Part shown: positions 2,136 through 55,381 of the stretch, one piece after another | Layout of the letters: every line of letters begins with the position of its first letter | How positions within the stretch are numbered: the stretch's first letter is position 1 | Assembly (NCBI GenBank): GCA_963823335.1 | Contig: CAWGLD010000004.1 | Span: 384,001 to 448,000 of the forward strand | Source: an uncultured delta proteobacterium | Lineage (GTDB): Bacteria; Desulfobacterota; Desulfobacteria; Desulfobacterales; B30-G6 | Direction: 5' to 3' | DNA length: 64,000 bases | Notes under the pieces: model-generated | Seen by the model: only the letters and a program-made list of their open reading frames with translations | What the model was told of the DNA's origin: nothing | Databases searched by the model: none | Position numbers and translations under genes: made by a program

Positions 2136-4163
2136 ATGGCAGAAATAACCAAAGCTAAGGTAGCCAAAGAACCGAAATTGGCTGATCCGAAAATGGCAAG
2201 CATCGATGTTGCCAGCCAGGAAATGATCGCCCGTGCCCAGCAACTGGGTGTCGAAACGGTTTTCGACCGGGCGGTAAAAATGAAACCCTGTAACATCGGC
2301 ATTCAGGGAATCTGTTGTAAAAATTGTGCCATGGGCCCCTGCCGTCTACCACTCCCCAAGGGTGGCATCGAAGGTGAGGACGAAAGAAAAGGCCTGTGTG
2401 GTGCAACCCCGAATACCATTGCCGCACGTAACTTTGCCCGGATGGTCGCTGCCGGCGCGGCCGCCCACTCCGACCATGGCCGCGCTGTGGCCGAGGTCTT
2501 CAGATCTGCAGCCCGCAAAGAAACCGATGACTATAAGATTAAAGATACCGCCCGTCTGCTTGACATCGCCCCGCACCTGGGCGTTGCCATCAAGGTTGAG
2601 GTGGATGGTAAACAACAAGACAGGGACATCGATGAGATCGCCCTTGAAGTGGCTGAAGCCGCAATGAACGAGTGGGGCAAACCCGAAGGCGAGCTTCTTT
2701 ATGCCAAGAGAGCACCGGCGCCCCTTTATGAAAAATGGAAGAAAAACGGAGTTATCCCTCGAAATATCGACCGGGAAATCGTCGAGATCATGCACCGCAC
2801 CCACATGGGTGTCGACCAGGATTACAAAAACCTCGTCAAACAGTGCACCCGGGCATCCTTGGCCGATGGCTGGGGGGGCTCCATGCTGGCCACGGATCTT
2901 CAGGATATCATGTTCGGGACACCCTACCCCCTGCAGTCCGAAGCCAATATCGGCATCATGAAAGAAGATCATGTCAACGTCATCGTCCACGGCCACGAAC
3001 CGGTCCTGTCCGAAATGATCGTGGCCGCGTCTCAGACCAAAGAAATGCTGGACTACGCCAAATCAAAAGGCGCCAACGGCATTCAGCTGGGGGGCATCTG
3101 CTGCACGGCCAATGAAATACTGCAGCGTCACGGCGTACCACCGGCCGGCAACTTTCTGCAGCAGGAACTCGTCATCGTCACCGGCGCCTGCGATGCCATG
3201 GTGGTTGATGTCCAGTGTATCTTCCAGAACCTGGCCAATGTGGCAAAATGTTTTCACACCAAGCTCATCACCACCCACCCCATTGCCAAGATGGAGCAGG
3301 ACAACGTCATTCACATCGAATTTGACGAGCACCATGCACTGGAAGATGCCAAGCGGATTCTCCGATTGGCCATCGACAACTTTAAAAATCGTGCCACCGA
3401 GGTCATGATACCCAAGCATAAAGCCACCCAGATTGCCGGTTTCGGTGTTGAATCCATAAAATACCACCTGGGCGGCACTTTTCGCGGCACCTACTACACC
3501 CTGAACGACAACATCATCAATGGACGCATCCGAGGTCTCGCCGGTGTTGTGGGATGCAACAATGCGCGTTCCCAGCATAACAACGAGTGCATCACCATTA
3601 TCAAGGAACTGATCAAGAACGATGTCCTCGTTCTGACCACCGGCTGCAATGCCATCGCCTGTGCTACGCATGGGCTGCTGACCCCGGAAACCGCTGCGGT
3701 ATATTGCGGGCCCGGCCTGGCCGAGGTGTGCGAGACCGTGGGTATTCCACCGGTTCTGCACCTGGGTTCCTGTGTGGACAATAGCCGGATTCTCCTGGCA
3801 GCCACCGAGGTCGTCAAGGCCGGTGGACTGGGAAATGACATCAGTGATCTGCCTGCTGCAGGCAGCGCTCCGGAGTGGATGAGTGAAAAGGCCATTTCCA
3901 TCGGTCAATATTTTGTCTCTTCCGGTGTCTACACCGTTTTTGGCGGTGTTCTGCAGGTTAATGGTGCGCCTGTGTTCCAGGATTACCTGTTCAATGAGCT
4001 GGAAAAGGTTTACGGCGGCATGTGGGATATGTATACAAACCCCATGGATCATGCGCATGCCATGATCGCCCATATCGACAAAAAGCGTAAGGCACTCGGC
4101 ATCGATAAAGCCAGAGACAGGGTACTTATGGATATGGCAGACCGTCAGGCACTCGAGGCATAA
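2136..4163 (+). CDS. cooS: Anaerobic Ni-Fe carbon monoxide dehydrogenase catalytic subunit
   Basis: CCKNCAMGPC, HGHEP, CCTANE, GCNN, GSCVDNSR and EWMSEKA cluster-ligand motifs. Confidence 0.97.
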   Translation: MAEITKAKVAKEPKLADPKMASIDVASQEMIARAQQLGVETVFDRAVKMKPCNIGIQGICCKNCAMGPCRLPLPKGGIEGEDERKGLCGATPNTIAARNFARMVAAGAAAHSDHGRAVAEVFRSAARKETDDYKIKDTARLLDIAPHLGVAIKVEVDGKQQDRDIDEIALEVAEAAMNEWGKPEGELLYAKRAPAPLYEKWKKNGVIPRNIDREIVEIMHRTHMGVDQDYKNLVKQCTRASLADGWGGSMLATDLQDIMFGTPYPLQSEANIGIMKEDHVNVIVHGHEPVLSEMIVAASQTKEMLDYAKSKGANGIQLGGICCTANEILQRHGVPPAGNFLQQELVIVTGACDAMVVDVQCIFQNLANVAKCFHTKLITTHPIAKMEQDNVIHIEFDEHHALEDAKRILRLAIDNFKNRATEVMIPKHKATQIAGFGVESIKYHLGGTFRGTYYTLNDNIINGRIRGLAGVVGCNNARSQHNNECITIIKELIKNDVLVLTTGCNAIACATHGLLTPETAAVYCGPGLAEVCETVGIPPVLHLGSCVDNSRILLAATEVVKAGGLGNDISDLPAAGSAPEWMSEKAISIGQYFVSSGVYTVFGGVLQVNGAPVFQDYLFNELEKVYGGMWDMYTNPMDHAHAMIAHIDKKRKALGIDKARDRVLMDMADRQALEA

Positions 4164-4194: not shown

Positions 4195-6408
4195 ATGTCT
4201 AAGTTAGTCGCATTTGCCGCCATACAGGGTGGTTATAAAGTTGTCTCAACGGCTGAAGGCCAGTTTAAAAACGCACTGGCAACATTCAATGCCGATTCCA
4301 AGATCGAATTCCCCAACACCGGTTACTACCTGCCGGTGATTTATTCACTGACCGGTATGAAAGTCGAAACCCTGGAAGACCTCAAGAAGCCCCTTGAATT
4401 TGCGCGCGGCCTGCTGCCGCCGCATGTCAAAGGTAAAAATCATCTGCCGTACCTCGGTCCTCTCCTGGATGCAGGCATGGCCGCCATTTTTTCCTATGAA
4501 ATTCTGGAGGCCCTGCGTATCCTGCGGGAACCGGACTATTACCTGCCCCAGGAAGATCCTGACATCGATGCGGGCAAGCTCTGGGTCGGCCCTGCCGATG
4601 ATATCATTCTCCGCAAACGGGGCGTGGAGTTCGTGGATGGTACCGCGCCCGGGTTTGCCGCGGTTGTCGGCGCTTGTCCGGACCCCGAAACCGCCAAGAT
4701 GATCGTGGAGGACTATCAGAAGAAGAACCTCTACATTTTCTGTGCCGCCCATCACAACGGCACATCGGTCATCGAGCAACTCATCGAGGCCGGTGTCCAG
4801 GTAGGCTGGAGCACCCGTATCGTTCCCTTTGGCCCGGATATTTCATCGGCCGTGTTCGCTCTGGGTTTTGCCAACCGGGCAGCCATGGCCTTTGGTGGTG
4901 TCCAGCCGGGCGATTATAAAAAAATTCTGCACTACAACAAGGACAGGGTCTTTGCCTTTGTCAACGCTTTCGGCGATATCGGCACCGAGTGGGGTGTCGC
5001 GGCCGCCGGCTGTGTCAACTGGGGTTTCCCGACCCTGGCCGACACCGATATTCCGGAAATTCTCCCCACCGGTATCTGTACCTACGAACACGTGGTGGCC
5101 AACGTGCCTCACGACGAAATCTGCCAGAGATCGGTGGAGGTCCGGGGTCTCAAGGTAACCGTTTCCGAAATCGACATCCCCTGTTCCTTTGGACCGGCCT
5201 TTGAAGGCGAGCGAGTCCGGGGGGCCGACCTTTACTGCCAGATGGGCGGCGGCAAGACTCAGGCCACCGAGCTGGTGAAAATGGCGGACATGAAAGAAAT
5301 CGAAGATGCCAAGGTGATCGTTGACGGACCGGATATCGGAGATATTAAAGAAGGTGAAACCCTGCCCCTGGGGATCTTTGTCCAGGTGGCCGGTCGTGAA
5401 ATGCAGACCGATTTCGAACCGATCCTGGAACGTCAGATCCATCACCTGATCAACTACATCCAGGGTATCATGCACATCGGACAGCGGGATATCGCCTGGA
5501 TCCGCGTGGGCAAGGCTGCCATTGAAAAGGGCTTCACCATCAAGGATATCGGTGTGGTCCTGCACGCCAAGTTCCACCAGGACTTCGGCAAGATTCTCGA
5601 CAAGGTGCAGGTTACCCTGATCACCGACAAGAAAAAGGTCGACGCCCTGACCAAAACAGCCCGGGCCGAATACAAGACCAGGGATGAGCGGGTCGAGAAG
5701 ATGACAGACGAAGATGTGGAAACCTACTATTCCTGTACGCTCTGCCAGTCATTTGCACCCACCCATGTCTGCTCTGTCAGCCCCGAAAGAACAGGTCTCT
5801 GCGGTGCCTACAACTGGATGGACTGCAAGGCCTCCTTCGAGATCAACCCCACCGGCCCGAATCAACCCATTGAAAAGGGTGAATGTATCGATCCGGTTCT
5901 GGGCCAGTGGAAAGGTGTCAATGAATTCGTCAACAAGGCCTCCAGGGGCGCGGTCACACATTACAATTTCTATTCCATGGTGATCGATCCCATGACAACC
6001 TGCGGGTGCTGTGAGTGTATCGCGGCCATGCTGCCCTCCTGTAACGGTGTCATGACCGTAGGACGGGATTACACCGGTGATACACCCTGCGGCATGAAGT
6101 TCACGACCCTTGCCGGTGTCATGGGAGGTGGTGCGTCATCACCTGGGTTTGTGGGTCACTCCAAGTTCAACATCACCCAGGGGAAATTCATCAAGGGTGA
6201 CGGCGGACTGCTGCGGGTGGTCTGGATGCCCAAGGTCCTCAAAGAGGAGATCAAGGAACGTCTGGAAAAGGTCGGCAAGGCCATGGGTGTTCCAGATCTG
6301 TATGACAAAATTGCGGATGAAACCGTAGGCGTTACCGAAGAAGAGATCCTGCCATGGCTCGAAGAAAAAGGCCACCCGGCACTCAAGATGGATCCGATCA
6401 TCGGATAA
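4195..6408 (+). CDS. acsB: Acetyl-CoA synthase
   Basis: CTLCQSFAPTHVC, ERTGLCGAY, PMTTCGCCEC and TPCGMKF A-cluster motifs. Confidence 0.97.
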   Translation: MSKLVAFAAIQGGYKVVSTAEGQFKNALATFNADSKIEFPNTGYYLPVIYSLTGMKVETLEDLKKPLEFARGLLPPHVKGKNHLPYLGPLLDAGMAAIFSYEILEALRILREPDYYLPQEDPDIDAGKLWVGPADDIILRKRGVEFVDGTAPGFAAVVGACPDPETAKMIVEDYQKKNLYIFCAAHHNGTSVIEQLIEAGVQVGWSTRIVPFGPDISSAVFALGFANRAAMAFGGVQPGDYKKILHYNKDRVFAFVNAFGDIGTEWGVAAAGCVNWGFPTLADTDIPEILPTGICTYEHVVANVPHDEICQRSVEVRGLKVTVSEIDIPCSFGPAFEGERVRGADLYCQMGGGKTQATELVKMADMKEIEDAKVIVDGPDIGDIKEGETLPLGIFVQVAGREMQTDFEPILERQIHHLINYIQGIMHIGQRDIAWIRVGKAAIEKGFTIKDIGVVLHAKFHQDFGKILDKVQVTLITDKKKVDALTKTARAEYKTRDERVEKMTDEDVETYYSCTLCQSFAPTHVCSVSPERTGLCGAYNWMDCKASFEINPTGPNQPIEKGECIDPVLGQWKGVNEFVNKASRGAVTHYNFYSMVIDPMTTCGCCECIAAMLPSCNGVMTVGRDYTGDTPCGMKFTTLAGVMGGGASSPGFVGHSKFNITQGKFIKGDGGLLRVVWMPKVLKEEIKERLEKVGKAMGVPDLYDKIADETVGVTEEEILPWLEEKGHPALKMDPIIG

Positions 6409-6525: not shown

Positions 6526-7866
6526 ATGGCATTAACCGGTATTCAGATTTTTAAACTCCTGCCGAAAACCAACTGTAAGGAATGCGGCGTCCCCACCTGC
6601 CTTGCCTTTGCCATGAACCTGGCGTCCGGTAAAGCAGAACTCGACAGCTGCCCCTATGTATCGGATGAAGCAAAGGAACAGCTGGCAGAGGCTTCCGCTC
6701 CGCCCATCCGTCCCGTAAAAATCGGAAAAGGCGTCAGAGCCTTCACCACCGGCGGCGAAACCGTACAGTATCGACATGAAAAAACATTTTACAACCAGAC
6801 AACCCTCGCTGCACTGGTCGGTTCCGACATCTCGGATGCTGATCTTGCGGCCAAGCTGACAACCTGGAACGCATTTCAGTTTGAACGCGTGGGACTGAAT
6901 CTCAGACCCGAATTGGTGGCCTTAAAAGACGCCGGTGGCGATGCAGCCGCATTTGCCGCCAAAGCCAAGATCATCGCAGAGACATCGGAGTTCAATCTCG
7001 TACTGATGTCCGACAGCGCGGAAGCCATGAAAGCCGCCATCGACGTGGCCGGGTTCAAACGGCCCCTGCTGTATGCTGCCACCGAAGCCAATCTGGAGGC
7101 CTACGGAGAAATGGCCAAGGCAGCAGACCTGCCCCTGGCGGTCAAGGCCGATTCGGTGGAAGCCCTTATTCCGTTGACAGAAAAGCTGACGGAAATGGGA
7201 CTCAAAGATATCGTCATCGATCCGGGTTCGCGGGAGATCAAAAAAGCCCTGGAAGACCAGATCATCATCCGGCGGGCCGCCCTCAAAAACGGCAACCGGA
7301 TGATCGGGTTTCCCACCATCAACTTCCCTTGTGAAATGGCCTCGAACCTGGACATGGAAACCCTCATCGCCGGCATGTTTATCGCAAAGTACGGCGGCAT
7401 TGTGGTCCTCTCCGACTTCTCCGGTGATACACTCTTTCCGCTGCTTCTGGAACGGCTCAATATCTATACGGATCCACAGCGCCCAATGACCGTCACCGAG
7501 GGAATTTACGAGGTCAACAACCCGGATGAAAACTCACCCGTACTGGTGACCACCAACTTTGCCCTGACCTATTTTATTGTGTCAGGCGAGATCGAAGGCA
7601 GCAGGGTACCTGCCTATCTGCTCATCAAAGACTCCGAAGGTCTGTCGGTCATGACGGCCTGGGCTGCCGGAAAATTTGCCGGCGACGATGTCGGCATGTT
7701 CGTCAAGAAAAGCGGCATCATGGATAAAGTCAAGCATACGGAACTGATTATCCCTGGCTACGCTGCCGCCATCGCCGGTGATGTCGAGGAAGAACTTCCC
7801 GGTTGGACGATTACGGTTGGACCCAGGGAAGCAGCACACATCCCGGGTTTTTTGAAGTCCAGATAG
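6526..7866 (+). CDS. acsC: Corrinoid Fe-S protein large subunit (CODH/ACS gamma)
   Basis: N-terminal LPKTNCKECGVPTCLAFA...CP 4Fe-4S motif; VLVTTNFALTYF; GLSVMTAWAAGKF. Confidence 0.97.
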   Translation: MALTGIQIFKLLPKTNCKECGVPTCLAFAMNLASGKAELDSCPYVSDEAKEQLAEASAPPIRPVKIGKGVRAFTTGGETVQYRHEKTFYNQTTLAALVGSDISDADLAAKLTTWNAFQFERVGLNLRPELVALKDAGGDAAAFAAKAKIIAETSEFNLVLMSDSAEAMKAAIDVAGFKRPLLYAATEANLEAYGEMAKAADLPLAVKADSVEALIPLTEKLTEMGLKDIVIDPGSREIKKALEDQIIIRRAALKNGNRMIGFPTINFPCEMASNLDMETLIAGMFIAKYGGIVVLSDFSGDTLFPLLLERLNIYTDPQRPMTVTEGIYEVNNPDENSPVLVTTNFALTYFIVSGEIEGSRVPAYLLIKDSEGLSVMTAWAAGKFAGDDVGMFVKKSGIMDKVKHTELIIPGYAAAIAGDVEEELPGWTITVGPREAAHIPGFLKSR

Positions 7867-7952
7867 TTGAAGAACATTCTCCGGGAATCACCCTTTGAAC
7901 AGCGGACCGCCAACAGGTTTCGCTTCAGAACAACCACAAGCAGGGAGGTCAT

Positions 7953-8834
7953 ATGTTTCTCATAGGTGAAAGCTTAAACGTAATTTCCCAGAAGATCGGT
8001 CGCGCATACAAGGAGCGCGATCCCAAACCGATCCAGGAGGAAGCCCTTTTTCAGAAAGAAAAGGGAATGGATTATATCGATATCAACCTGGGACCGGCCA
8101 AGAAAGACGGTCCCGAATTGATGCCCTGGGTGGTAGAAGTGGTCCAGGAAGTTGTGGATGATGTGCCCCTGGCCCTCGACACATCCAATGTCGATGCCAT
8201 AGAGGCTGCCATCAAGGTCTGCAAACTGCCGCCGCTCATTAACTCCATCATGGTACGACCGGAAAGATATGAGCGGATGGTGCCCATTGCCGCCGAAAAC
8301 AATTGCGACTTTATAGCACTCATGTGGGGTCCAGATGGTCTTCCCCGCGATGAAAACGAGCGTGCGGCACTCTGTGTCGAGCTGGTCTACTTTGCCAACG
8401 AGGCCGGTATACCCAATGAAAAGATATGGGTAGACGGTATTGTCACACCCGTGAATATCCAGCAACCCCAGGCCATAAGTCTCATGGACTTCCAGGGCAT
8501 GCTCCAGGATATGGCCCCGGGTGTCAAAAGCACCTGCGGTCTTTCCAACATTTCCAACGGACCGCCGATTCACCTGCGCCCGATCCTGAATCAGACCTAC
8601 ATGGTCATGCTCCAGAAATACGGCATGTACTCAGTAATCGCCGATCCCCTGGATGATCTCCTCATCGACATCGCCAAGGGAAACCGTCAGGATATCGTCG
8701 ACCTGATTTACGGTATCATGGATGGTAATGACCCGGATATGGGCAGTCTCTCCAAGGAAATGCAGGATTTTGCCAAGACTACCAATGTTATCCTGGGCAA
8801 ATCCCTCTACTCGGATTCCTGGCTCGACGTCTAA
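7953..8834 (+). CDS. acsE: Methyltetrahydrofolate:corrinoid Fe-S protein methyltransferase
   Basis: Pterin-binding barrel motifs (IGESLN, YIDIN, LALDT, INS, CGLSNISNG); last gene of acs operon. Confidence 0.9.
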   Translation: MFLIGESLNVISQKIGRAYKERDPKPIQEEALFQKEKGMDYIDINLGPAKKDGPELMPWVVEVVQEVVDDVPLALDTSNVDAIEAAIKVCKLPPLINSIMVRPERYERMVPIAAENNCDFIALMWGPDGLPRDENERAALCVELVYFANEAGIPNEKIWVDGIVTPVNIQQPQAISLMDFQGMLQDMAPGVKSTCGLSNISNGPPIHLRPILNQTYMVMLQKYGMYSVIADPLDDLLIDIAKGNRQDIVDLIYGIMDGNDPDMGSLSKEMQDFAKTTNVILGKSLYSDSWLDV

Positions 8835-8853
8835 TCTTCGAAATTATTTGTGC

Positions 8854-8891
8854 AAAAAAAAGGCCCCTCTGAAGTAGAGGGGCCTTTTTTT
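8854..8891. terminator. Intrinsic, bidirectional-type terminator after acsE
   Basis: A-tract, GGCCCCTCT-GAAGT-AGAGGGGCC, T-tract. Confidence 0.85.
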
Positions 8892-8912
8892 ATAATTTAA
8901 GGAGAAATATTC

Positions 8913-9941
8913 ATGATACCCACCATACTTCAGACAACCATTGCCGGAAGCATGCCCAAACCAGCCTGGCTTGCCGAACCACTCAAATTATGGGCACCCT
9001 GGAGACTTGAGGGCCAAGATCTGGAAGAAGCCCAACGTGATGCGGTTCGACTGGTTTTGCAGGACCAGGAAAAAGCCGGTATCGACATCGTCAGCGATGG
9101 AGAACAGACACGTCGGCATTTCGTTACCACATTTATCCAACACCTGGCTGGCATCGATTTCGAAAAATCCCGAACCATCAGGATCCGCGACAGATATGAT
9201 GCCGATGTCCCCGTGGTTAACGGTCCGGTGATGCGCACAACGCCGGTATATGTCAAAGATGCCCGGTTTCTTCGCGCTGAAACCGGGCATCAGGTGAAGT
9301 ATACCCTGCCCGGCCCCATGACCATGGTCGATACACTCTTTGACGACTATTACCACAGCCGTGAAAAACTTGCCTGGGAGTTTGCGAAAATTCTGAACCA
9401 GGAAGCACACGAAATAGCCGACGCCGGTATTGACGTCATCCAGTTCGATGAACCGGCCTTTAATGTTTTCTTTGATGAAGTTCGTGATTGGGGAATAAAA
9501 ACCCTCGAACGTGCCGCCCAGGGTCTGTCCTGCAAAACTGCCGTTCACATCTGCTATGGGTACGGTATCAAGCAAAACACCGACTGGAAAGCAACCCTGG
9601 GATTGGAGTGGCGCCAATACGAAAACACATTTCCTTTGCTGCAGGCCTCAAGTATCGATCAGGTATCCCTGGAATGCCACAACTCGAAAGTTCCCATGGC
9701 ACTAATAGATCTTTTAAAAGGCAAGGACGTGCTGGTGGGAGCCATCGATGTGACCACCAACCAGATTGAAACGCCCCAGAGTGTTGCCGCCACTATCCGT
9801 GAAGCACTTGCCTATGTGGCACCGGAGAAACTGTATCCCTGCACCAACTGCGGCATGGTACCGCTTCCCCGGAAAGTCGCCGTGGATAAACTAAAAGCTC
9901 TCGCCGCCGGCGCCGCCCTCATAAGAGAGGAATTGGCCTAG
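8913..9941 (+). CDS. Core (catalytic-domain-only) cobalamin-independent methionine synthase, MesD/PRK09121-like
   Basis: 342 aa; GSMPKPAWL, DGEQTRRHFVTTF, LPGPMT, IQFDEP; Zn ligands in HICYG, LEC and TNCGM; no N-terminal folate-binding barrel. Confidence 0.88.
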   Translation: MIPTILQTTIAGSMPKPAWLAEPLKLWAPWRLEGQDLEEAQRDAVRLVLQDQEKAGIDIVSDGEQTRRHFVTTFIQHLAGIDFEKSRTIRIRDRYDADVPVVNGPVMRTTPVYVKDARFLRAETGHQVKYTLPGPMTMVDTLFDDYYHSREKLAWEFAKILNQEAHEIADAGIDVIQFDEPAFNVFFDEVRDWGIKTLERAAQGLSCKTAVHICYGYGIKQNTDWKATLGLEWRQYENTFPLLQASSIDQVSLECHNSKVPMALIDLLKGKDVLVGAIDVTTNQIETPQSVAATIREALAYVAPEKLYPCTNCGMVPLPRKVAVDKLKALAAGAALIREELA

Positions 9942-9957
9942 GTTCGTTAGAGTCAAA

Positions 9958-10737
9958 TTATCGCCTCTGCGGATTGCGTCCCATAAAGGCCACGGCGGTC
10001 TGAGCGTAGAGATCCGGGTAATGTTCGAAGATATTGTGTCCGCACTTGGGGAAAATAGCCAGTTCACCCTTTGAAAGATTACGAAAAAAAGCAACGCCCT
10101 GCTCGGCCTCGAAAAAATGACCCCGGTCCGGGTACATCACCAGGGTCGGGCAGGTAACACGCTGCAATTCGGGCCGCAGGTCAAAAAGGCCGCGGCCGTA
10201 GCTACCCCCGTACCGGCTGCAGAGACGGTAAAAAGATTCAGCACGATCAGGTCCATGCCAGTCGACATATTTCTTCTGGATATCAGCGGAAAGATCGTTG
10301 TATGTCGGAGGGAATTTAAGGCGGTTGAAGGCTTCCAGGGTTATGTCACTGAAACAGAGGGTGCTGGCAGCCGTCAAGGTTTGGACCTTGTCAGGGTATC
10401 GCACGGCATAGTCGACCCCCACCACACCGCCTTCGCACTGGCCCACGATGTGAAATGTGTCAAATCCCAGGTGGTCCACTAGCTGTGCCATGCAAGTCAC
10501 GGCAGCCTCCCGGAAGTCGGAACTGACATAATGGGTCTCAAAATCGATTCCGCCCTCGGATTGGCCGTAACCCCTGCGGTCATACACCAGCACACGGAAA
10601 CCGGCCGCCACTAGTCTGGGGGTAATCTTTTCCCACATCCTACTGCAGGAAAACCCATTGTGAAGCAAAACAACCGTGTCACCCTCTCCATAGACCTCAT
10701 AAAAAATATCATGCTCATTTATTTCGACAAAAGACAT
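9958..10737 (-). CDS. Alpha/beta-fold hydrolase with Cys at the nucleophile elbow
   Basis: LLHNGFS, YDRRGYGQS, GQCEGG, CGHN. Confidence 0.85.
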   Translation of the reverse strand: MSFVEINEHDIFYEVYGEGDTVVLLHNGFSCSRMWEKITPRLVAAGFRVLVYDRRGYGQSEGGIDFETHYVSSDFREAAVTCMAQLVDHLGFDTFHIVGQCEGGVVGVDYAVRYPDKVQTLTAASTLCFSDITLEAFNRLKFPPTYNDLSADIQKKYVDWHGPDRAESFYRLCSRYGGSYGRGLFDLRPELQRVTCPTLVMYPDRGHFFEAEQGVAFFRNLSKGELAIFPKCGHNIFEHYPDLYAQTAVAFMGRNPQRR

Positions 10738-11946: not shown

Positions 11947-12600
11947 ATGCCCTCCCCTCTTGAAAAAGCACGTCTGAATCCAGATTCCATGAAAGCCAAA
12001 ATCCTGTGCGTTGCCCGCAAGCTGTTCGGCGACTACGGCTACAATGGCACCACCACCCGTATGATCGCAGGGAAGGTGGGTATCGACATTTCAACCCTCT
12101 ATTACCATTGGGGTGAAAAGCAGGATCTTTACGAGGCCCTTATCACCGACATCAACGAAGAGATCCAGCTGGAATTCAAAGAAGTCGAAAAAAATGTGAA
12201 AAACAAACCCCTGGCAGAACGTCTAGATATCGCCATCGACATCCTGACGGATTACCTCTTCGCTCATCCGGAAGTCTCCAACCTGATTCTCAACGATTCC
12301 TTCAATAAATCCAAACCAGCGTCTGTGCCGGATATCAAGATCGGTGATTTCACATCGAACATCGCCATAGCCATGGACCTGGCCAAGAGCAAAGCAAACG
12401 TATCGGTCCAGTCAAAAGCGCGAATCCTGGCGGTATGGAACTGTGTTCTCAACTTTATTTCCGGGGAGAGCTTCTTTCGGCCGATTCTCGACATCGACCG
12501 CCAGCACTATCTCGAAACAATCAAAGAAACACTGAAATTTATCATTGTACCGGCATTTACAAAGGAGAAAAAGGAGGAGACCTATGGCATTAAACCTTGA
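11947..12600 (+). CDS. TetR/AcrR family regulator
   Basis: ARKLFGDYGYNGTTTRMIAGKVGIDISTLYYHWGEKQDLY HTH. Confidence 0.93.
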   Translation: MPSPLEKARLNPDSMKAKILCVARKLFGDYGYNGTTTRMIAGKVGIDISTLYYHWGEKQDLYEALITDINEEIQLEFKEVEKNVKNKPLAERLDIAIDILTDYLFAHPEVSNLILNDSFNKSKPASVPDIKIGDFTSNIAIAMDLAKSKANVSVQSKARILAVWNCVLNFISGESFFRPILDIDRQHYLETIKETLKFIIVPAFTKEKKEETYGIKP

Positions 12601-14692
12601 TGCTGTCGGAAAAAAAATCGGTCCAATTTCCAAGGAGTACACCTGGAAAGACGCTGTGCTGTATGCCCTTGGCGTTGGCGCCGGATTTTCCGACCTGGAA
12701 TACTGTTATGAAAAGGATCTTAAGGTTATACCCAGTTTTGCGATCACCACTCTCTACGAAACCATGCCCCAGGCCCTGTCCCTCACTAACGTGAATCTTG
12801 CAGGTATTCTGCATGGTGAACAGGAACTGATCTTTCACAACCCAATCCCACCTAACGGCACAATGACCATCGAAGGATCCATCGCCAACGTCTATGACAA
12901 GGGTAAAGAAAAAGGCGCCCTGGTTATTGCCGAAAGCGAAGCCAGTCACTCCACCGGTATCAAACTCTTCACAGCCAGAAGTACCCTTTTCTCACGCTTA
13001 GACGGCGGATTCGGCGGCGAAAACCCGCCCTCGGAGACCATCGAATTCCCGGATCGTGATCCCGATTTCAGCGTCGATGCGTCACCTTCTGATAATCAGC
13101 CACTGATATACCGGTTGTCCGGAGATGTTTTTCAACTGCATGTGGATCCGGAATTTGCCCGCATGGCGGGATTCGAAAAACCGATCATGCACGGCCTGTG
13201 TACCCATGGCTATGCCTGCAGGGCTTTGATACAGGCCCTTATTCCGGGCCAGCCCGAAAATGCCAGACGCATGACCTGCCGTTTTACCAAACCGTTATAC
13301 CCGGGCATGCCCTTGAAAACCCTGATCTGGAAAACCGAAAAAGGCAAGGCGATATGGCGTGTGCAGAACATGGAAACGGGTGACATCGTGATTGACCGGG
13401 GTGTGTTTGAATACGGAGACATTCCCAAGAATGAAATTCGATTCGACGGCCGTGTGGCGGTTGTTACCGGTGCCGGGGCAGGACTTGGCCGCGTCTATGC
13501 CCTCGAATTGGCCAAACGGGGTGCCAAGATCGTCGTCAACGATCTGGGCGGTGCCCGGGACGGCTCCGGTGAAGGTTCTGCAACACCAGCCGACCAGGTT
13601 GTGTCGGAAATCAAAGCCCTGGGAGGAGAGGCCGTAGCGAATTACGATAACGTCGCCACGCCTGCAGGCGGCCAGAATATTATCAATAGTGCCCTTAATA
13701 CGTTTGGAACCGTGGATATTCTCATCAACAACGCCGGCATCCTGCGTGACAAGAGTTTTTTGAAGATGGAGCCCGAAAACTGGCAGTCCGTGCTGGATGT
13801 CCATTTAAACGGGGCTTATCATGTCACCCGACCGGCCTTTGCCGTCATGAAGGAGAAAGGGTACGGCCGAATCGTGATGACCACTTCGGCCGCTGGTCTC
13901 TATGGCAATTTCGGTCAGTCAAACTATACTGCAGCCAAGATGGCGCTCATCGGTCTCATGAACACCCTCAAACTTGAAGGTCAGAAATACAACGTCAAGG
14001 TCAACACCGTCGCACCCGTGGCGGCCTCGCGTCTGACGGAGGATGTCTTGCCCCCCGAATTTTTCGAAAAATTGAAACCCGAGTTCGTGGCGCCCATGGT
14101 CCTGTATCTTAGCTCAGAGGAATGCCCGGTCACCGGTAATATCTACAATGCGGGTATGGGATGTTACAACCGCGCCGCCATTGTCACCGGTGCCGGTGCC
14201 GTGATCGGAAAAGGCCAGGAGATCCCCACACCGGAACAGGTGGTTGCTTCCTGGAAAGATATCGCCTCCCTGAAGAATGCCAAAGAATACACCCAGCTCA
14301 ATGAACAGATCGGCGACCTTCTGGCAGCTTTTGCACCTCAAAAAGCCAAAGCGGCAGGACCTGCTGCGGCTGCCGGATCTGTGGCGGGTATTTTCACTGC
14401 CATGACAGACACCTTCAACACCGATGCAGCCGAGGGTGTCGATGTCATCTTTCAGTTCTGTATATCAGGAAAAGGGGGCGGGAACTGGTCCTGCACCATC
14501 AAAGACAAGACCTGTACAATCCATACCGGGATCAACGACCAGGCGGTGTGCACGCTCAAAATGGCCGACACTGATTTTTTGGACATGATGACCGGTAAGC
14601 TCCCAGCCATGCAGGCCTACACATCCGGGAAGCTGCAGATCGAAGGCGACATCATGAAATCTCAGCTTATTGAAAAACTGTTCAAAATCTAA
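12584..14692 (+). CDS. Fusion: (R)-specific enoyl-CoA hydratase-2 (double hotdog) + MFE-2-type SDR dehydrogenase + SCP2
   Basis: YALGVGA, LHGEQ, YRLSGDVFQLHVDP, PIMHGLCT; TGAGAGLG, NNAG, NYTAAK; terminal AMQAYTSGKLQIEGD; start moved to ATG after AGGAGG. Confidence 0.9.
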   Translation: MALNLDAVGKKIGPISKEYTWKDAVLYALGVGAGFSDLEYCYEKDLKVIPSFAITTLYETMPQALSLTNVNLAGILHGEQELIFHNPIPPNGTMTIEGSIANVYDKGKEKGALVIAESEASHSTGIKLFTARSTLFSRLDGGFGGENPPSETIEFPDRDPDFSVDASPSDNQPLIYRLSGDVFQLHVDPEFARMAGFEKPIMHGLCTHGYACRALIQALIPGQPENARRMTCRFTKPLYPGMPLKTLIWKTEKGKAIWRVQNMETGDIVIDRGVFEYGDIPKNEIRFDGRVAVVTGAGAGLGRVYALELAKRGAKIVVNDLGGARDGSGEGSATPADQVVSEIKALGGEAVANYDNVATPAGGQNIINSALNTFGTVDILINNAGILRDKSFLKMEPENWQSVLDVHLNGAYHVTRPAFAVMKEKGYGRIVMTTSAAGLYGNFGQSNYTAAKMALIGLMNTLKLEGQKYNVKVNTVAPVAASRLTEDVLPPEFFEKLKPEFVAPMVLYLSSEECPVTGNIYNAGMGCYNRAAIVTGAGAVIGKGQEIPTPEQVVASWKDIASLKNAKEYTQLNEQIGDLLAAFAPQKAKAAGPAAAAGSVAGIFTAMTDTFNTDAAEGVDVIFQFCISGKGGGNWSCTIKDKTCTIHTGINDQAVCTLKMADTDFLDMMTGKLPAMQAYTSGKLQIEGDIMKSQLIEKLFKI

Positions 14693-14860: not shown

Positions 14861-17590
14861 ATGATTGGTATCACTTCATATGGCGCATACATACCACGTC
14901 TGAGACTGGACAGAATGTCCATTTTTCAGGGCATGGGCTGGTTTGCACCTGCTATTATGATGGTCGCTCAGGGAGAACGGTCCATGTGTAACTGGGATGA
15001 AGACACCCTTACAATGGCGGTTGCGGCTTCAAGAGACTGCCTCAAGGGCATGGACAAACACGCCTTGGACGGGCTGTATCTGGCATCCACGACCCTGCCC
15101 TTTGCTGATCGGCAGAACGCCGGTATCGTATCGGCCGCGTTGAATCTGGGTAGCAATCTGATCACATCTGATTTTGCAGCTTCTCAAAAAGCCGGCAGCA
15201 CGGCACTGATCACGGCCCTAGAATCTGTAAAAAGCGGAGACCGGAAAAGTATCCTGGTGGCGGCATCTGACAGTCGTGAAACTAGAACCGCTTACTTTTA
15301 TGAGATGTGGTTCGGTGATGGTGCGGCCGCCTTTACCGTGGGAGACAGCGATGTCATCGCAGCTTACAAGGGATCTTTTTCCGTGTCACATGATTTTGTC
15401 GATCACTACAGGGGAGCCCGTAACCAGTTCGACTACATGTGGGAAGAACGCTGGACCCGGGATGCCGGTTACGGAAAAATCATCCCGGAAGCCGTGAACG
15501 GTCTCCTGCAAAAACTCGGCATGACCATGGAACAGGTGGACAAACTGGTCTATCCATGCTTTTTCAAAGGCGATCATCGCAAAATTGCCCAGAATCTGGG
15601 GGCTTCACCGGATAAACTGGTGGACAATCTCCACGAAGTCTGTGGCGAAACCGGCACGGCTCACCCCTTCTTGATGATGACCGCAGCCCTGGAATCATCC
15701 AAACCCGGGGACCATATCCTCATGGCAGGATTTGGTCAGGGCTGCAACGCACTCATGTTCGAGGTAACCGAGCAGATCACCAAACTGGCACCCCGCAACG
15801 GGTTTGACGGCACCCTCAACAACAAAAAGACCCTTCACAATTACCAGAAATGGCTGAAATTCAGAAACCTGATTCAGACGGAGATGGGTATCCGTGCGGA
15901 AGCCCCCACCCAGACAGCCACCACCGTACTATGGCGTAAAAACAAGATGATTCTCGGGTTGGTGGGTGGCAAATGCGAAGCCTGCGGCACGCCCCAGTTT
16001 CCCAAAGCGGATATCTGCGTGAATCCGGACTGCGGTGCGGTCCACAGCCAGGTTGACTACGAATTTGCCGACGAGCCCGCCAAAGTGAAAACATTCACCG
16101 GTGACCTGTTAGCGGTGTCGGTGGATCCACCTGCCATTTACGGCATGGTTCAATTCGATGTGGGCGGCCGGATGATGGCGGACTACACGGACTGTACTCT
16201 GGATGAGATCAGGGTCGGCCTCCCGGTAAGCATGGAATTCAAACGCAAGGGTGTGGACAAGGATCGCGGTTTTAGCAATTATTTCTGGAAAGCGGTGCCT
16301 CTCCCCGGTGCGAATGTCCAAGAGGATCAGATATCGTTCGACGGCAGGGTGGCCATCGTGACCGGCGCGGGCGCAGGCCTGGGACGTGTATATGCACTGG
16401 CGCTCGCCAAGCGGGGAGCCAAAGTGGTGGTCAACGACCTGGGAGGTGCCAGGGACGGTTCCGGGGGCGGTTCTGCATCCCCTGCAGAAAAGGTAGTTGC
16501 CGAAATCAAGGCGTCTGGTGGAGAGGCTGTGGCCAATTATGACAATGTGGCCACGCCTGAGGGCGGTGAAAATATTGTCAGGACCGCTCTCGACACCTTC
16601 GGTGCGGTGGATATTCTGATCAACAATGCAGGAATCCTGAGAGATAAAAGCTTTCTGAAGATGGAGCCTGATAACTGGCAGGCGGTTCTATCCGTACACC
16701 TGCACGGGGCCTACCACGTCACCCGACCGGCCATGGTGGCCATGAAAGAAAAGGGCTACGGCAGGATCGTGATGACGACATCAGCCGCTGGTCTTTACGG
16801 CAATTTTGGCCAGACCAATTATTCGGCCGCCAAGATGGGTCTGGTTGGGCTGATGAACACCCTCAAACTGGAGGGGCAGAAATACGATATCAAGGTCAAC
16901 ACCATAGCGCCCATCGCGGCTTCGCGACTGACAGAGGATGTCATGCCGCCGGAACTTTTTGAAAAATCTAAACCGGAGTTTGTTTCTCCGCTGGTGATGT
17001 TCCTTGCCAGTGAAACGTGCCAGGAATCCGGCAGTATTTTCAATGTTGGCATGGGATACTTCAACCGCGCGGCCATCCACACCGGTCCCGGAGTTCAGCT
17101 GGGAGATCTGGAAAATTTGCCGACACCCGAGATGATCCGTGAAAACATGGATGCCATTGACTCACTCGAGGGGGCCACGGAAATGGCAGATGCCAATGCG
17201 GCCATATTTGCTCTGATATCACCGCCGGCCGACGCGGGAGCAGACGAACCAGCACAAGACAGCACTGGTGATCTCGATGTAGAAGCATGTTTCGCCAACA
17301 TGAAAAATACGTTCAATGCCGAGGCCGCCGAAGGTATCCATGTGGTGTTTCAATTCAGTATTTCAGGTCAAGGCGGCGGGGAATGGAGCTGTGTTATCAA
17401 TGACAAAACCTGCACCATCGATGTGGGTAGCCACGACAAACCCAATTGCACCCTTAAGATGGCAGACAATGATTTTCTCGACATGATCGCAGGAAAGCTC
17501 CCGGCCATGCAGGCTTACACCTCAGGGAAACTGCAGATTGAAGGGGATATTCTCAAGTCTCAGTTGATTGAAAAACTATTTACGATCTAG
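14861..17590 (+). CDS. Fusion: HMG-CoA-synthase/KAS-III-like domain (no catalytic Cys) + DUF35 Zn-ribbon/OB-fold + SDR + SCP2
   Basis: MIGITSYGAYIPRLRL, DEDTLTMA, ASQKAG in place of ACxxG; CEACG...CVNPDC; second MFE-2-type SDR; SCP2 tail. Confidence 0.85.
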   Translation: MIGITSYGAYIPRLRLDRMSIFQGMGWFAPAIMMVAQGERSMCNWDEDTLTMAVAASRDCLKGMDKHALDGLYLASTTLPFADRQNAGIVSAALNLGSNLITSDFAASQKAGSTALITALESVKSGDRKSILVAASDSRETRTAYFYEMWFGDGAAAFTVGDSDVIAAYKGSFSVSHDFVDHYRGARNQFDYMWEERWTRDAGYGKIIPEAVNGLLQKLGMTMEQVDKLVYPCFFKGDHRKIAQNLGASPDKLVDNLHEVCGETGTAHPFLMMTAALESSKPGDHILMAGFGQGCNALMFEVTEQITKLAPRNGFDGTLNNKKTLHNYQKWLKFRNLIQTEMGIRAEAPTQTATTVLWRKNKMILGLVGGKCEACGTPQFPKADICVNPDCGAVHSQVDYEFADEPAKVKTFTGDLLAVSVDPPAIYGMVQFDVGGRMMADYTDCTLDEIRVGLPVSMEFKRKGVDKDRGFSNYFWKAVPLPGANVQEDQISFDGRVAIVTGAGAGLGRVYALALAKRGAKVVVNDLGGARDGSGGGSASPAEKVVAEIKASGGEAVANYDNVATPEGGENIVRTALDTFGAVDILINNAGILRDKSFLKMEPDNWQAVLSVHLHGAYHVTRPAMVAMKEKGYGRIVMTTSAAGLYGNFGQTNYSAAKMGLVGLMNTLKLEGQKYDIKVNTIAPIAASRLTEDVMPPELFEKSKPEFVSPLVMFLASETCQESGSIFNVGMGYFNRAAIHTGPGVQLGDLENLPTPEMIRENMDAIDSLEGATEMADANAAIFALISPPADAGADEPAQDSTGDLDVEACFANMKNTFNAEAAEGIHVVFQFSISGQGGGEWSCVINDKTCTIDVGSHDKPNCTLKMADNDFLDMIAGKLPAMQAYTSGKLQIEGDILKSQLIEKLFTI

Positions 17591-33496: not shown

Positions 33497-36400
33497 TTAG
33501 GATGTGTTTACCGCTAAGGTTCCCAGGTATACCGACCCTTCGCGTCCATCGATGCTGATCCTGTCCCCCGAAGTCATACGAACCTTACCAAAAGAACAGA
33601 CCTTCTCCTTTTCATCACACACCATGTCGTTGCATCCCACAACACTTGTCTTCCCCAGTCGATGGGTGACCACGGCCGCATGAGACGTGACACCACCCCG
33701 GGAGGTCAACAGTCCGTCAGAAGCATAAATCTCCTTGATATCGTCCGGCACCGTATCACTCCTGACCAGGATCAGGGGTGTGTCAGGCTCCAGTTGACGC
33801 CATCTGTCAATTTCTTTGAGGGTGAAAACGATCCGCCCGCTTATGGCACCGCCACTAACGCCTATACCATGCCCTAGGAATCGATCTTCTTCGATCATGT
33901 CCAGGTTGAAGGTCATGGCCTTCTTCCGCTCGCGTATACCCATATCACGCGTCTGCAGCAGGTATAAATCTCTTGCTTCGGGGCCTTCAAATGTAAATTC
34001 CATCTCCTGGGGACTCCATCCACGTCTTTCGATCAGTTCGATGGCCCAGCCTTTCATGGTCTCGTAAATCTTTGGAAAATGTGTTTCCAGGGTAATATCG
34101 GTTTCCCGCATCTCGATATCCTGTTGGGAAATCGAGATCGGCAATGTCGTAACCAGACCGGAAACCACGTCCTCTCCCTGGTTGCCGATGGTAAAATCAC
34201 CCCATAACCGAAGACTGTCGCCTAACCACCTCGGGTTGTGCGTAAAGAACACACCCGCGCCGGCCTGTTCCGACAGATTGCCGAAAACCATGGTTTGCAC
34301 AGTAACCGCCGTACCCCAATCGTCCGATATGCCCATGATTTTTCGATAGGTTCTGGCGCGGGAGGATTTCCAGCTTCCCAGGACGTTTCGAATCGTCTCA
34401 TAGAGCTGTTCCAGGGGGTCCTCCATGATTCTAACACCCGTGTCATTGATAAAACGTTTGTACGATAAAGCTACTTTACGCATCTGTCTGCCCGTCAGGT
34501 CGCGTTTGAACTGAACCCCGGCGCGTCGTTTTAATTCACCGATAATGGCATCAAAATCATCCCGTTCCAGACCAAATGACATGCCGTAACATTGCAGAAA
34601 ACGCCGATAGCTGTCCCATGCAAACCATTCGTTTTTCGTCACCGCGGCGATTCCTTCTGTAATCTCCTCATTGATCCCTACATTTAGAAATGTATCCATC
34701 ATCCCCGGTTGGGAGATGGACGATCCACTCCTCACCGAAAAAAGAAGCGGATTTTTCGGACTCCCAAAGGATTTCCCGGTCCGTTCTTCGATGACCGAGA
34801 TCTGCTGCACTACCTGCTCCCTGAAATTATCTTCGGCAGGTTTATAGCTCTCGATAATTTCCTGACACCTAAAAACCTCCGTTGTAAGGATAAAGCCGGG
34901 GGGCACCGGCATGCCGTAATTGTTCAGTTTTACCATATTCAGACCCTTGCTTCCCAGATGAATGATACCGGAAACTCTCGGGCTGACACCATGGATCAGC
35001 GCCATGGCATTTTTGGGATCGTATAACAGAAGTTGTTGTAGCTGCTTCTTGGGAAGCTTGTTGGCTTGCTGAAAGAGTGTGCTGAGAATGCGACTCAAAA
35101 AAAGATCCAGCTGCTGGATACCGGTGGTCATGGCAATCCTGTCACGAAAAAATATCTCAGAAATGCGGTGCTGGAAATTCTCTTTTTCAGGCTCGCCGCT
35201 TGCCGGAAGATACTTTTTCATAACCTGGTTCGGGGTCAATTTCTCAATGATACCCATCAGGTTTTTGCCATGCATGTTCCCGAAATGATCATTGGTGATA
35301 TTTTTTACCGCCTGGGCAAACCCTTTGAAAATATCCAGGTACTGTGTGAAGGTGAATCCCCTGGCCTCCAGGGAATGCGCAAGCATTTCAATCTGTCTTT
35401 CGACTTCCACCGAATGGATTCCCTCGATTTTGAGGGCCTTGTCGAAAAGCATGAGATGGTCATAAATCTGGTAGAATGTTGCCTTGGTTATCAGACTCAG
35501 ATCCGTGCTTTCCACGAGTTCCTCAAAGAGAGTATTCACGAGAGACTCGAGTCGATACGTCAAACCCAGTGCGTCAAATTTCATCTCGTGGTAGGATCCG
35601 TACATGGAAGGGATGTCGACCGTAAAATGCCTCTTTTTGTATATATCCTCTTTCACCTCGAATGGTGTGTCTGACAGAATAAGGTATTTCAAAAATTCGA
35701 GATACTCGAGCATCATGGAGATCTTTTTCCTCAAAGACGGCTCGGCCAGTGCAGCTTCGAGCTTGTCGAGACCCGGAAAAGCTTCTATTTTCAATTTCCG
35801 GATATGGTTATTGACCTCAATAAAATCGAGATGGTACTTCTGCTGAAGATGCCGGTAAAAGGATACCGCCAGAAGCATCTTCTCCACATCGCTCTCTGGA
35901 GCATCCTTCATATCCCCCAGCAACGCCTTCAGATGGTCTTCTTCGATGGTAAGAAGATCCCCCGGAAAATTCAGGTTTTTCCCGGCCAGGTGGTTGATCA
36001 CAGCGTTTAAGCCGTCAATATAGGGCCCTTGGCTTTGAATCTGGTTAAAAATGACCGGTGGTAAAAATGGTTTTAAGAGCTCCTTATCCCTTGTCTGCCA
36101 GAATTTCAGGGTGGCCTCCATGAAAAGGATAATGAGATTGCTGCTTTCTACATGGCTCTGCTTGCGCAGGAAATGAACCAGTACATCCTTTCTCTGACAC
36201 AGCTCATCGATACGCGTGGATATGTCCCGGAGATTGCCCTCGGCGCCGATATCGTTAAAGTAGACCGGGAAGAGACGCGCCAGCTGTTTGATGAGATTAT
36301 ATACCGGTTCGATGTCACTGTTCAAAATCCGGGTAATGTCACGGGGAAACAGGTCCGTATCCTTGATAAAAACACCGCACAAAGACAGATAGATGGTCAG

Positions 36401-52305: not shown

Positions 52306-52356
52306 AATCGTTGCACGATTTTATAGAACGCGACGTTGTCGCTCTACAGCGAAAGG

Positions 52357-53286
52357 ATGACTGTGAAAGAAGCGAACAATCTCAATCAAAAACCGGGCCC
52401 GACAATTTGGGCTGTCGGTGGTGGCAAGGGAGGCGTGGGAAAGAGTGTCATCAGCACGCTGCTTGGTTTCTGGCTCTCTCAGATGGGCAAACGGACTGTC
52501 CTGATCGATGTCGATTTTGGCGGGGCGAATCTCCACACCATGCTGGGGATAAAGAGCCCACCAAAAACCATCAATGACTTCATCACCAAGAAATATGATC
52601 GGCTTGAGGATATCTGCATCGAAACGGGTATCAAGAACCTGCGATTGTTGAGTGGTGCCAGTGAAATTCTGTCTTTGGCCAATCTCCAGTTCGCCCAGAA
52701 AATAAAAATCATGCAAAGTATTTCGCAACTGGACACCGAATTCGCCATACTCGATTTAGGTTCGGGCACATCTTACAATGTTCTCGATTTTTTTCTTATG
52801 GCCCACAGGAAGATCGTTGTGTTGACACCTCAGCCAATTTCTATTCAGAATGCCTATGCCTTTGTCAGAAATGCTGTGTATCGCAAATTGAGCAGGTTAA
52901 GCAGCCAGAAACCAGCCCTTCTTGCTACGATTAAAACGGCGATGGATCCTAAAAACGAGATGAATGTCCGGACCGTGAAGGATCTTCTCAATGCCGTAAA
53001 GGAAAACAACAGCGAAGAAGATATGAATCTGCTCAGCCAGGAGATCACTGAAATCCGTCCGGCCCTGGTGACCAACATGACAAAAAGCCCCAGAGACAAG
53101 GAGGCCGGACGGATCATTCAACTCGTTTCACAAAAGTATCTGATGATTCACCCAACAATTTTAGGAAGTATCATGCGCGACAATCAGATAGACAATATGA
53201 TATCCGGTATGTCTCCCCTGACCACCATCGACCGATCCTGCGAAGCCATTGCAGGGGTGTACAATATCGTCACCGACCTGATATAG
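52357..53286 (+). CDS. MinD/FlhG(FleN)-like ATPase
   Basis: GGGKGGVGKS, DVDFGGANLH, ILDLGSG. Confidence 0.88.
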   Translation: MTVKEANNLNQKPGPTIWAVGGGKGGVGKSVISTLLGFWLSQMGKRTVLIDVDFGGANLHTMLGIKSPPKTINDFITKKYDRLEDICIETGIKNLRLLSGASEILSLANLQFAQKIKIMQSISQLDTEFAILDLGSGTSYNVLDFFLMAHRKIVVLTPQPISIQNAYAFVRNAVYRKLSRLSSQKPALLATIKTAMDPKNEMNVRTVKDLLNAVKENNSEEDMNLLSQEITEIRPALVTNMTKSPRDKEAGRIIQLVSQKYLMIHPTILGSIMRDNQIDNMISGMSPLTTIDRSCEAIAGVYNIVTDLI

Positions 53287-53299
53287 GGAAAAAACTTTT

Positions 53300-55234: not shown

Positions 55235-55381
55235 ACCGATATGTATCCTCAATAAGAAATCGTTAAACGATTTTTGTGAAACGCCACGTTGTCGCTATTT
55301 GTACCTAATCTGAGTTCTCAAGTCAATACGGCAATCAAATTTCCAAAGACAATACGTTTGCTTTCGAGGTTCCCCGGCACA

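Follow-up and report, generated by a model that had tools for sequence, protein, structure and literature searches.

A putative MesD-like core methionine synthase without a MesX partner beside the Wood-Ljungdahl operon of an uncultured member of the Desulfobacterales

Among the described systems, the one closest to the gene studied here is MesD/MesX of Acinetobacter baylyi (ACIAD3523/3524; Price, Deutschbauer and Arkin 2021, PMC7857596). According to that paper, MesD occurs only in aerobes, depends on MesX and O2 and needs neither cobalamin nor folate. The core-MetE (MesB) of Dehalococcoides mccartyi (cbdbA481/DET0516) uses only methylcob(III)alamin (Deobald 2020, PMC7005905). Here we describe a gene of the MesD sequence family that lies on the same strand as the acs operon of a Wood-Ljungdahl bacterium, 78 bp after the acsE stop codon, without mesX. 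The gene was found in a stretch of 64,000 nucleotides, called the window below (positions 384,001 to 448,000 of contig CAWGLD010000004.1, assembly GCA_963823335.1), from an uncultured delta proteobacterium of the Desulfobacterales, and the genome containing the window (G000) was 93.9% complete on 11 contigs. The more solid and more general result, as judged from sequence comparison, is a sister lineage of MesD in Wood-Ljungdahl bacteria of one order that lacks MesX and is probably independent of oxygen.

An earlier note on this DNA had read the gene as a catalytic-only MetE of 342 amino acids with zinc ligands, lying 78 bp behind acsE and resembling the PRK09121/MesD family by eye; the architecture and position were as described, and the resemblance was right at the family level. 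PF01717 covered residues 7-331 of the 342, and the N-terminal MetE domain PF08267 gave 19.4 bits, under its cut-off of 27, indicating that the catalytic domain stands alone. The NCBIfam model NF006589 (PRK09121, "methionine synthase", an equivalog) matched residues 4-342 with 603.4 bits against a cut-off of 392. The two-domain MetE model TIGR01371 gave 87.6 bits against a cut-off of 929.95 and was matched in its C-terminal half alone, so the protein is not MetE. The alignment to PDB entry 3RPD from Shewanella, treated as a MesD structure by Price et al. in the relevant part of PMC7857596, was gapless and scored 530 bits. The putative zinc ligands H212, C214, E254 and C313 were invariant across 148 MesX-linked and 125 MesX-less sequences. 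The same was true of the homocysteine-binding residues S13, E64 and D179 and of Y217, the tyrosine of the MesD insertion; these four correspond to Ser22, Glu73, Asp188 and Tyr226 as given in PMC7857596, with the mapping counted by hand from the 3RPD alignment. A look-up of the protein in the ESM Atlas returned generic PF01717 clusters only.

When the gene was compared with the copy on contig C660 of genome G791, dN (nonsynonymous divergence) was 0.074, dS (synonymous divergence) 0.90 and dN/dS 0.08, and the flanking hydrolase gene had a similar dS of 0.79. The mesD-like gene is under purifying selection. Its features suggest that it encodes an intact zinc-dependent homocysteine S-methyltransferase, a putative "core" methionine synthase of the MesD sequence family.

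MesX was not found in the window, in which the earlier note had seen no DUF1852 gene, nor elsewhere in the genome: the PF08908 profile gave 0 matches in either, and tblastn of the genome with a Pseudomonas MesX query, itself scoring 602 bits with PF08908, gave nothing better than E 4.6. As positive controls, tblastn recovered mesX at 78 of 78 aerobe loci and the PF08908 search succeeded in 5 of 5 aerobe genomes, and the flanks of the mesD-like gene are fully assembled. MesX was likewise found in none of five other carriers of MesX-less-type genes (G047, G024, G015, G061 and G062) and in none of 20 further carriers from the same order, which makes 0 of 26 genomes: G000 and 25 others with genes 55-87% identical to the window gene. 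The MesX-less set probably works without MesX, hence without the MesX/O2 route. A genome-wide search for metE and metH, suggested in the earlier note, detected no second PF01717 gene, and so no MetE and no MesB-like protein, and no full-length MetH, for which the best match was 170 bits against a cut-off of 1011 with separate domains only.

The association with mesX followed sequence identity. At 66-70% identity to the window protein, mesX lay directly upstream at 78 of 78 loci on contigs of GTDB genomes and at 73 of 76 loci on metagenome contigs (151/154 combined); the three loci lacking it start no more than 137 nt from a contig end, and two of the positives are partial at a contig edge. At 75-79% identity, none of six contig loci (L001, L002, L105-L108) had mesX, each with 3-8 kb of upstream sequence. 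In a quick IQ-TREE phylogeny of 89 rows, rooted at the midpoint on the long branch to MesB-like proteins, all 38 MesX-adjacent rows formed a single clade with a support of 99 in the SH-aLRT (Shimodaira-Hasegawa-like approximate likelihood ratio test). The window protein fell outside this clade, as did the remaining MesX-less loci and the most similar metagenome proteins. The next branches were two MesX-less proteins at 60% identity (G024 and G015), followed by Chloroflexota proteins at 37-48%; one Chloroflexota row (L198, genome G501) is in the tree, and no conclusion rests on it. Because the MesX-less relatives branch deeper, the MesX-less state looks ancestral and the association with MesX derived, which we regard as likely, not firm.

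Scores separated the two groups as well. In phmmer comparisons with MesD of Acinetobacter pittii (L036), MesX-linked proteins scored 646-771 bits and MesX-less proteins 531-596 bits, the window protein having 547; its BLASTp score was 508 bits at 68% identity. The MesD thresholds given in PMC7857596 are at least 390 bits (BLASTp) or at least 560 bits (phmmer) against ACIAD3523, for which the A. pittii orthologue served as a stand-in; on that basis the window protein, with 508 and 547 bits, would clear the BLASTp threshold but fall short of the phmmer one. Eleven positions (9, 10, 45, 131, 175, 191, 202, 208, 242, 272 and 304) were fixed differently in the two groups, and the changes at four of them alter charge (191 R/N, 208 K/E, 242 L/K and 272 D/K). 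Two natural fusions, P0143 (680 amino acids) and P0144 (691 amino acids), combine PF08908 with PF01717, the MesD part being 65-67% identical to the window protein, and they support a physical partnership of MesX and MesD in the canonical group. Singleton fusions to EamA, S49, beta-lactamase and other domains were rejected as partner clues, as they look like gene-calling joins.

The window protein is like MesD in its catalytic-only architecture, its NCBIfam equivalog, an identity of about 68-70%, and the same zinc-binding, homocysteine-binding and insertion-tyrosine residues. It is unlike MesD in that mesX is neither adjacent nor in the genome and that the host carries dsrA and CO dehydrogenase/acetyl-CoA synthase (CODH/ACS) genes; it also lies outside the MesX-linked clade, differs at the eleven fixed positions and has a phmmer score below the gap that separates the groups. 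With MesB it shares, as far as the cited part of PMC7005905 goes, a short MetE-type enzyme in an anaerobe that has the corrinoid iron-sulfur protein (CFeSP) and a corrinoid as proposed methyl source, and both AcsC and AcsD, the host criterion of MesB, are encoded in the window. However, the protein did not group with the MesB-like proteins of relatives (L086-L089): a very long branch separated it from them, and it was 28-31% identical to them. The sequence criterion for MesB is at least 173 bits with DET0516, for which these proteins are an indirect substitute. In PMC7857596, MesA of methanogens and MesC of anaerobic archaea are likewise core synthases from anaerobes, with corrinoid proteins as their presumed donors, but they belong to different families less than 30% identical, and it is by this description that we set the window protein apart from them.

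The gene is separated from acsE by a strong terminator, as the earlier note had cautioned. Its stem, GGCCCCTC/GAGGGGCC, has arms at 8862-8869 and 8877-8884 with A8 and T7 at the sides, folds with -32.1 kcal/mol (z -5.95; 0 of 200 shuffles as stable) and looks like a terminator from either strand. The hairpin is kept in G007, G004, G006, G001, G005 and on G791:C660, including congeners without the mesD-like gene. Only about 21 nt lie between the T-run and the ATG of the mesD-like gene, which leaves no space for a promoter of its own, and a scan for sigma-70-like promoters over 7700-10200 gave 0 sites. A TATAAT at 8891-8896, formed at the junction, was rejected as a promoter since it is too near the Shine-Dalgarno sequence to serve it. 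Rfam detected no riboswitch or other family in the window or in 14 MesX-less loci; the Rfam matches obtained were all unrelated, namely a cobalamin riboswitch 3' of mesD in L019 and, in L036, a C4 RNA. The gene brings its own ribosome-binding site, but a promoter would have no space, so read-through out of the acs operon is its most likely mode of transcription.

Contigs from three estuary metatranscriptome runs span acsE, the terminator and the mesD-like gene (8573-8975, 8592-9020 and 8763-9172), each of them one A shorter in the A-run that precedes the stem (8854), and a DNA contig covering 8779-9329 had 0 differences to the window. The arrangement therefore occurs in nature, which speaks against an assembly artefact. 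The contigs of the RNA libraries give a weak hint of read-through; bridging contigs of this kind cannot demonstrate a single transcript, and contig depths and uncovered bins were not taken as expression level. Two RNA libraries also had a joint, 9325>9423, that leaves out 97 nt of the mesD-like gene; its shorter side has only 23 letters, and we disregarded it. Strain variation or a mis-join probably accounts for the shorter A-run and the 97-nt skip.

The linkage to the acs operon, read in the earlier note as a functional tie, turned out to be largely lineage-specific. None of nine congeners had a close match to the mesD-like gene (none above 32% identity). In a sample of 401 genomes of the order, including G000, 24 carried it at 55% identity or more, seven of them at 75-100% and 17 at 55-61%. 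A sample of 401 genomes of the phylum yielded G000 and one match at 36%, and 301 genomes of Chloroflexota yielded one match at 77%. For 23 other carrier genomes the position of the gene could be judged, and in none was it on a contig with acsC or acsE. The exception is G791:C660, a contig of 1,862 bp (1.9 kb) that is colinear with window positions 8659-10515 at 82% DNA identity and contains the 3' end of acsE (96% amino acid identity), the terminator, the mesD-like gene (87%) and the hydrolase gene. Because G791 has a separate complete acsE, 79% identical, on another contig, G791:C660 is probably mis-binned and derived from a relative of G000.

The AcsE of the window was 97-99% identical to that of five of the seven congeners with a match and 93-94% identical to that of the other two, and the hydrolase gene adjoining the acs terminator was kept in congeners by blastn. 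In G007, G004 and G006, whose AcsE is 98-99% identical, homology extends over 7000-8893 and resumes from 9932-9959 in the hydrolase gene, so that exactly the ribosome-binding site and the open reading frame are gone. G001 and G005 (AcsE 97% identical) have a different sequence between the terminator and the hydrolase gene. The hydrolase segment of G000 was 84-85% identical to that of the gene-less G007, G004, G006 and G005 versus 79% to G791:C660. The spacer of the congeners contains TTGGCATAA, which resembles the last two codons and stop of the mesD-like gene; shuffles scored as high in 41 of 2000 cases against the G791:C660 tail and in 186 of 2000 against the G000 tail. A recent insertion into G000 is weakened by the same arrangement on G791:C660, by the co-divergence of the gene and its flank and by this possible remnant. 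Old presence at the site with later deletions is favoured, transfer through the conserved flanks being the alternative to it and a fresh insertion less likely. The acs linkage is confined to this genus-level group, and the gene is accessory and dispensable. In G053, a relative from the same order, a MesX-less-type gene (C2:430808-431808; L085 and L093-L095) is 59-77% identical over four pieces in different frames and looks frameshifted.

The neighbours of MesX-less genes vary from locus to locus and include Lon protease with BrnT, sucrose-phosphate genes, an MFS transporter, Cu/Zn superoxide dismutase, MsrA with a SnoaL-like protein, integrases and a heavy-metal ATPase. The periplasmic Cu/Zn superoxide dismutase gene is divergent and lies beside L106, L107, L108 and L254 (G805), together with macro-domain and ADP-ribosylglycohydrolase genes. 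MsrA and the SnoaL-like protein are encoded beside the genes of the 59% clade L258 (G1038) and L259 (G947), and a hemerythrin/PAS protein is encoded upstream of the mesD-like gene in L106.

Other genes of G000 bear on methionine supply. The genome encodes two stand-alone homocysteine S-methyltransferases of PF02574, one at C4:44773-45651 with 221 bits and the other a weaker match, a second pterin-binding protein of the methyltransferase (MeTr) type (NF005719, 359 bits, cut-off 259) and several small stand-alone B12-binding (corrinoid) proteins. Five methylenetetrahydrofolate reductase homologues are present, indicating that methyl-tetrahydrofolate (methyl-THF) is made. The PF02574, pterin-binding and corrinoid modules of the genus could form a split MetH. 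Such a three-part system is known in Phaeobacter inhibens and Ruegeria pomeroyi (MtgC/D/E; PMC12478193, PMC12366255); in G000 it could act in parallel to the MesD-like protein, which is of an unrelated fold and family, the comparison applying to C4:44773-45651 and other G000 genes elsewhere. Since these modules are present, the mesD-like gene probably encodes an accessory methionine synthase and not the only methionine route. The genome also has, at C5:237755-242735 (L193:3755-8735), a complete corrinoid methyltransferase cluster of an MtrH-like protein, a UroD-like methyltransferase, a corrinoid protein and a RACo-type reductive activator, which points to a methylated substrate that is used for growth or demethylated.

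The host may well be an anaerobe, as the earlier note took it to be: dsrA (616 bits), the CODH/ACS operon and the occurrence of the stretch in sediment metagenomes of several studies point that way, but the genome also encodes heme-copper oxidase homologues. We propose that in this dsrA-carrying Wood-Ljungdahl bacterium of marine and estuarine sediments, an enzyme of the MesX-less lineage is encoded by an accessory gene between the acs terminator and the convergent hydrolase gene. With neither oxygen nor MesX at its disposal, and in analogy to MesA and MesB, the enzyme would most likely have a methylated corrinoid as donor, either on a corrinoid protein (CFeSP or the small corrinoid proteins) or as free methylcobamide. 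As a whole, this reading of an intact, MesX-independent core synthase of the MesD family, accessory, expressed by read-through and probably supplied by a methyl-corrinoid, has in our judgement a little better than an even chance of being right.

Several observations weigh against it. The gene is dispensable, with no congener carrying it and the G053 copy frameshifted, and behind so strong a terminator it may be poorly expressed. The contigs of the RNA libraries also cross the convergent junction of the mesD-like and hydrolase genes (9941-9958), so that DNA carry-over is possible. No conserved corrinoid, CFeSP or methyltransferase neighbour, nor any other conserved partner, was found in about 20 MesX-less loci. 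Longer relatives (n=17) included no fusion to a B12-binding or CFeSP domain, the only recurrent fusion being MesX-MesD, seen twice. One carrier, the gammaproteobacterial metagenome-assembled genome G062, has neither a CdhD-family protein nor a separate MetH-like corrinoid protein, only full MetH. The PF02574 protein of C4:44773-45651 occurs in seven of the nine congeners at 63-88% identity and may supply methionine alone. Canonical MesD is about 68-70% identical and B12-free, so a non-corrinoid donor is quite possible by analogy, and two heme-copper oxidase homologues in G000 make contact with oxygen possible.

A narrower reading would tie the enzyme functionally to the Wood-Ljungdahl operon, with methyl-CFeSP (AcsCD) as its specific methyl donor, a source that has been proposed for MesB and MesC. 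The position on the same strand 78 bp after acsE fits it, as do the crossing of this junction in 3 of 3 metatranscriptome runs, the purifying selection on the arrangement in two lineages at dS of about 0.9, and the lack of any MesB-like or MetE gene found in G000. CFeSP genes also occurred in 23 of the 25 other MesX-less carriers (4/5 and 19/20), but this co-occurrence says little when acs genes are near-universal in the order (AcsE in 15 of 17 relatives). Moreover, other carriers never have the gene on an acsC or acsE contig, three congeners with almost the same AcsE lack it between the same flanks, and the terminator stands in between. The carrier G062 has no CFeSP at all. Of the earlier idea that a MesD had been repurposed for methyl-AcsCD, the MesD family membership stood; canonical MesD did not, given the position outside the MesX clade (SH-aLRT 99), and nothing specifically favoured CFeSP. 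Transfer from methyl-CFeSP is possible, with CFeSP as one candidate donor without specific support, and we consider this specific tie unlikely.

We think it still less probable that the protein is a corrinoid-independent back-up synthase with a non-corrinoid donor, useful when corrinoid enzymes are inactivated by transient oxygen or oxidative stress. The relatives studied so far that are closest to it do without B12 and folate (PMC7857596), several MesX-less loci adjoin oxidative-stress genes (L106-L108, G805, G1038 and G947), G062 lacks CFeSP and G000 has the oxidase homologues. However, the loci with stress-gene neighbours belong to a few related lineages, the stress genes do not share an operon with the mesD-like gene, a candidate donor-forming enzyme is nowhere conserved beside it, and canonical MesD without MesX fails in E. 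coli (PMC7857596). Very improbable, in our view, is a silent or near-silent passenger that is cut off by the acs terminator and heading to loss while methionine is made by split MetH, as documented for Phaeobacter (PMC12478193, PMC12366255). This would agree with the absence from the nine congeners, the frameshift in G053, the possible remnant of the last codons in the congener spacer (41/2000 and 186/2000 shuffles), the lack of a promoter-like site, and the presence of the partner modules and of the PF02574 protein in most congeners. Against it, dN/dS is 0.08 over a dS of 0.9, the catalytic residues are intact, the Shine-Dalgarno sequence is good and contigs of the RNA libraries cover the gene.

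A wider proposal goes beyond the accessory, probably corrinoid-dependent synthase that we prefer. The MesX-less enzymes of anaerobes might represent an ancestral, oxygen-independent MesD with methyl-corrinoid donors (CFeSP in Wood-Ljungdahl hosts), from which aerobic MesD/MesX arose once by recruitment of MesX as a new methyl source, the eleven substitutions marking the switch of partner. We offer this tentatively and would not be surprised to see it fail; if true, it would give a direct experimental handle on the methyl donor of MesD. The original chemistry of the MesD family was probably oxygen-independent. The comparison of the groups narrows partner specificity to the 11 discriminating residues and the MesX-MesD fusions. 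Close relatives without MesX occur in 26 genomes, mostly Wood-Ljungdahl bacteria of one order, and annotation pipelines or pathway predictors that equate PRK09121 matches with MesD will mislabel these genes. In the literature we found no description of a MesD clade that lacks MesX; table S1 in the supplement of PMC7857596 lay outside that search and may bear on it, since 4 of 399 proteomes are given there with MesD but without MesX.

The coordinates of the features are collected in Table 1. A string of Wood-Ljungdahl genes opens the window on the + strand, from the acsD-like gene to acsE.

Table 1. Features around the mesD-like gene, in window coordinates
Feature	Position	Strand	Evidence or remark
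acsD-like CFeSP small subunit, 525 amino acids, with low-complexity C-terminal extension of about 210 amino acids	484..2061	+	PF03599 residues 16-300; NF003377 689 bits (cut-off 527)
cooS/acsA, anaerobic CO dehydrogenase catalytic subunit	2136..4163	+	TIGR01702 601 bits (cut-off 478)
acsB, acetyl-CoA synthase (alpha/beta type)	4195..6408	+	NF007078 1096 bits (cut-off 809)
acsC, CFeSP large (corrinoid-binding) subunit	6526..7866	+	NF003195 619 bits (cut-off 306); PF04060, PF03599
acsE, methyl-THF:CFeSP methyltransferase, 293 amino acids	7953..8834	+	PF00809; NF005719 220 bits, under cut-off 259
Bidirectional intrinsic terminator: A8, 8-bp GC stem, 7-nt loop, T7	8854..8891	.	closes acs operon
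Segment missing from G007, G004 and G006 between same flanks (presence/absence polymorphism)	8894..9931	+	blastn colinearity, junctions read
Shine-Dalgarno AAGGAG	8899..8904	+	8 nt 5' of mesD-like ATG, read from sequence
Putative MesD-like, MesX-independent core methionine synthase, 342 amino acids	8913..9941	+	NF006589, PF01717, 3RPD match, dN/dS
Convergent alpha/beta-fold hydrolase	9958..10737	-	PF00561, PF12697; stop 16 bp from mesD-like stop
IS200/REP-associated tyrosine transposase-like protein with C-terminal helix-turn-helix	10753..11736	-	PF01797, PF13384; NF047646 54.7 bits, under cut-off 80

The acsD-like protein has an unusual end. After the CdhD domain (residues 16-300), its tail of about 210 amino acids matches TolA and MSCRAMM repeat models, the TolA-like low-complexity matches lying at residues 348-492. 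Open frames of 512-528 amino acids were also present for this gene in the order-level relatives G047, G024 and G015. The transposase-like gene lies two genes 3' of the mesD-like gene; homology to congeners reaches 11313, so it is not specific to G000.

Behind a TetR gene, the window encodes two fusion proteins. The one at 12545-14692 (715 amino acids) joins a MaoC-type hydratase, an SDR and an SCP2 domain, and that at 14861-17590 (909 amino acids) joins an HMG-CoA-synthase/KAS-III-like domain, a ChsH2-type zinc-ribbon/OB fold, an SDR and an SCP2 domain. They are followed by a thiolase (NF004810, 712 bits) and then an acyl-CoA dehydrogenase, and as a set these genes resemble a module for the beta-oxidation of side chains, with a bulky lipid or a steroid-like compound as substrate. 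A protein of 1393 amino acids is encoded at 33497-37678 on the - strand with known domains (PPDK_N and the PEP-utilizer mobile domain) only in the last ~490 residues; the first ~900 residues had no Pfam match at E 1e-8. At 51142-54463, two paralogues of 387 amino acids, each with a cyclic nucleotide (cNMP)-binding and a PilZ domain, are encoded on either side of a ParA/MinD-like ATPase, and a third, small PilZ protein is encoded on the opposite strand at 54878-55252.

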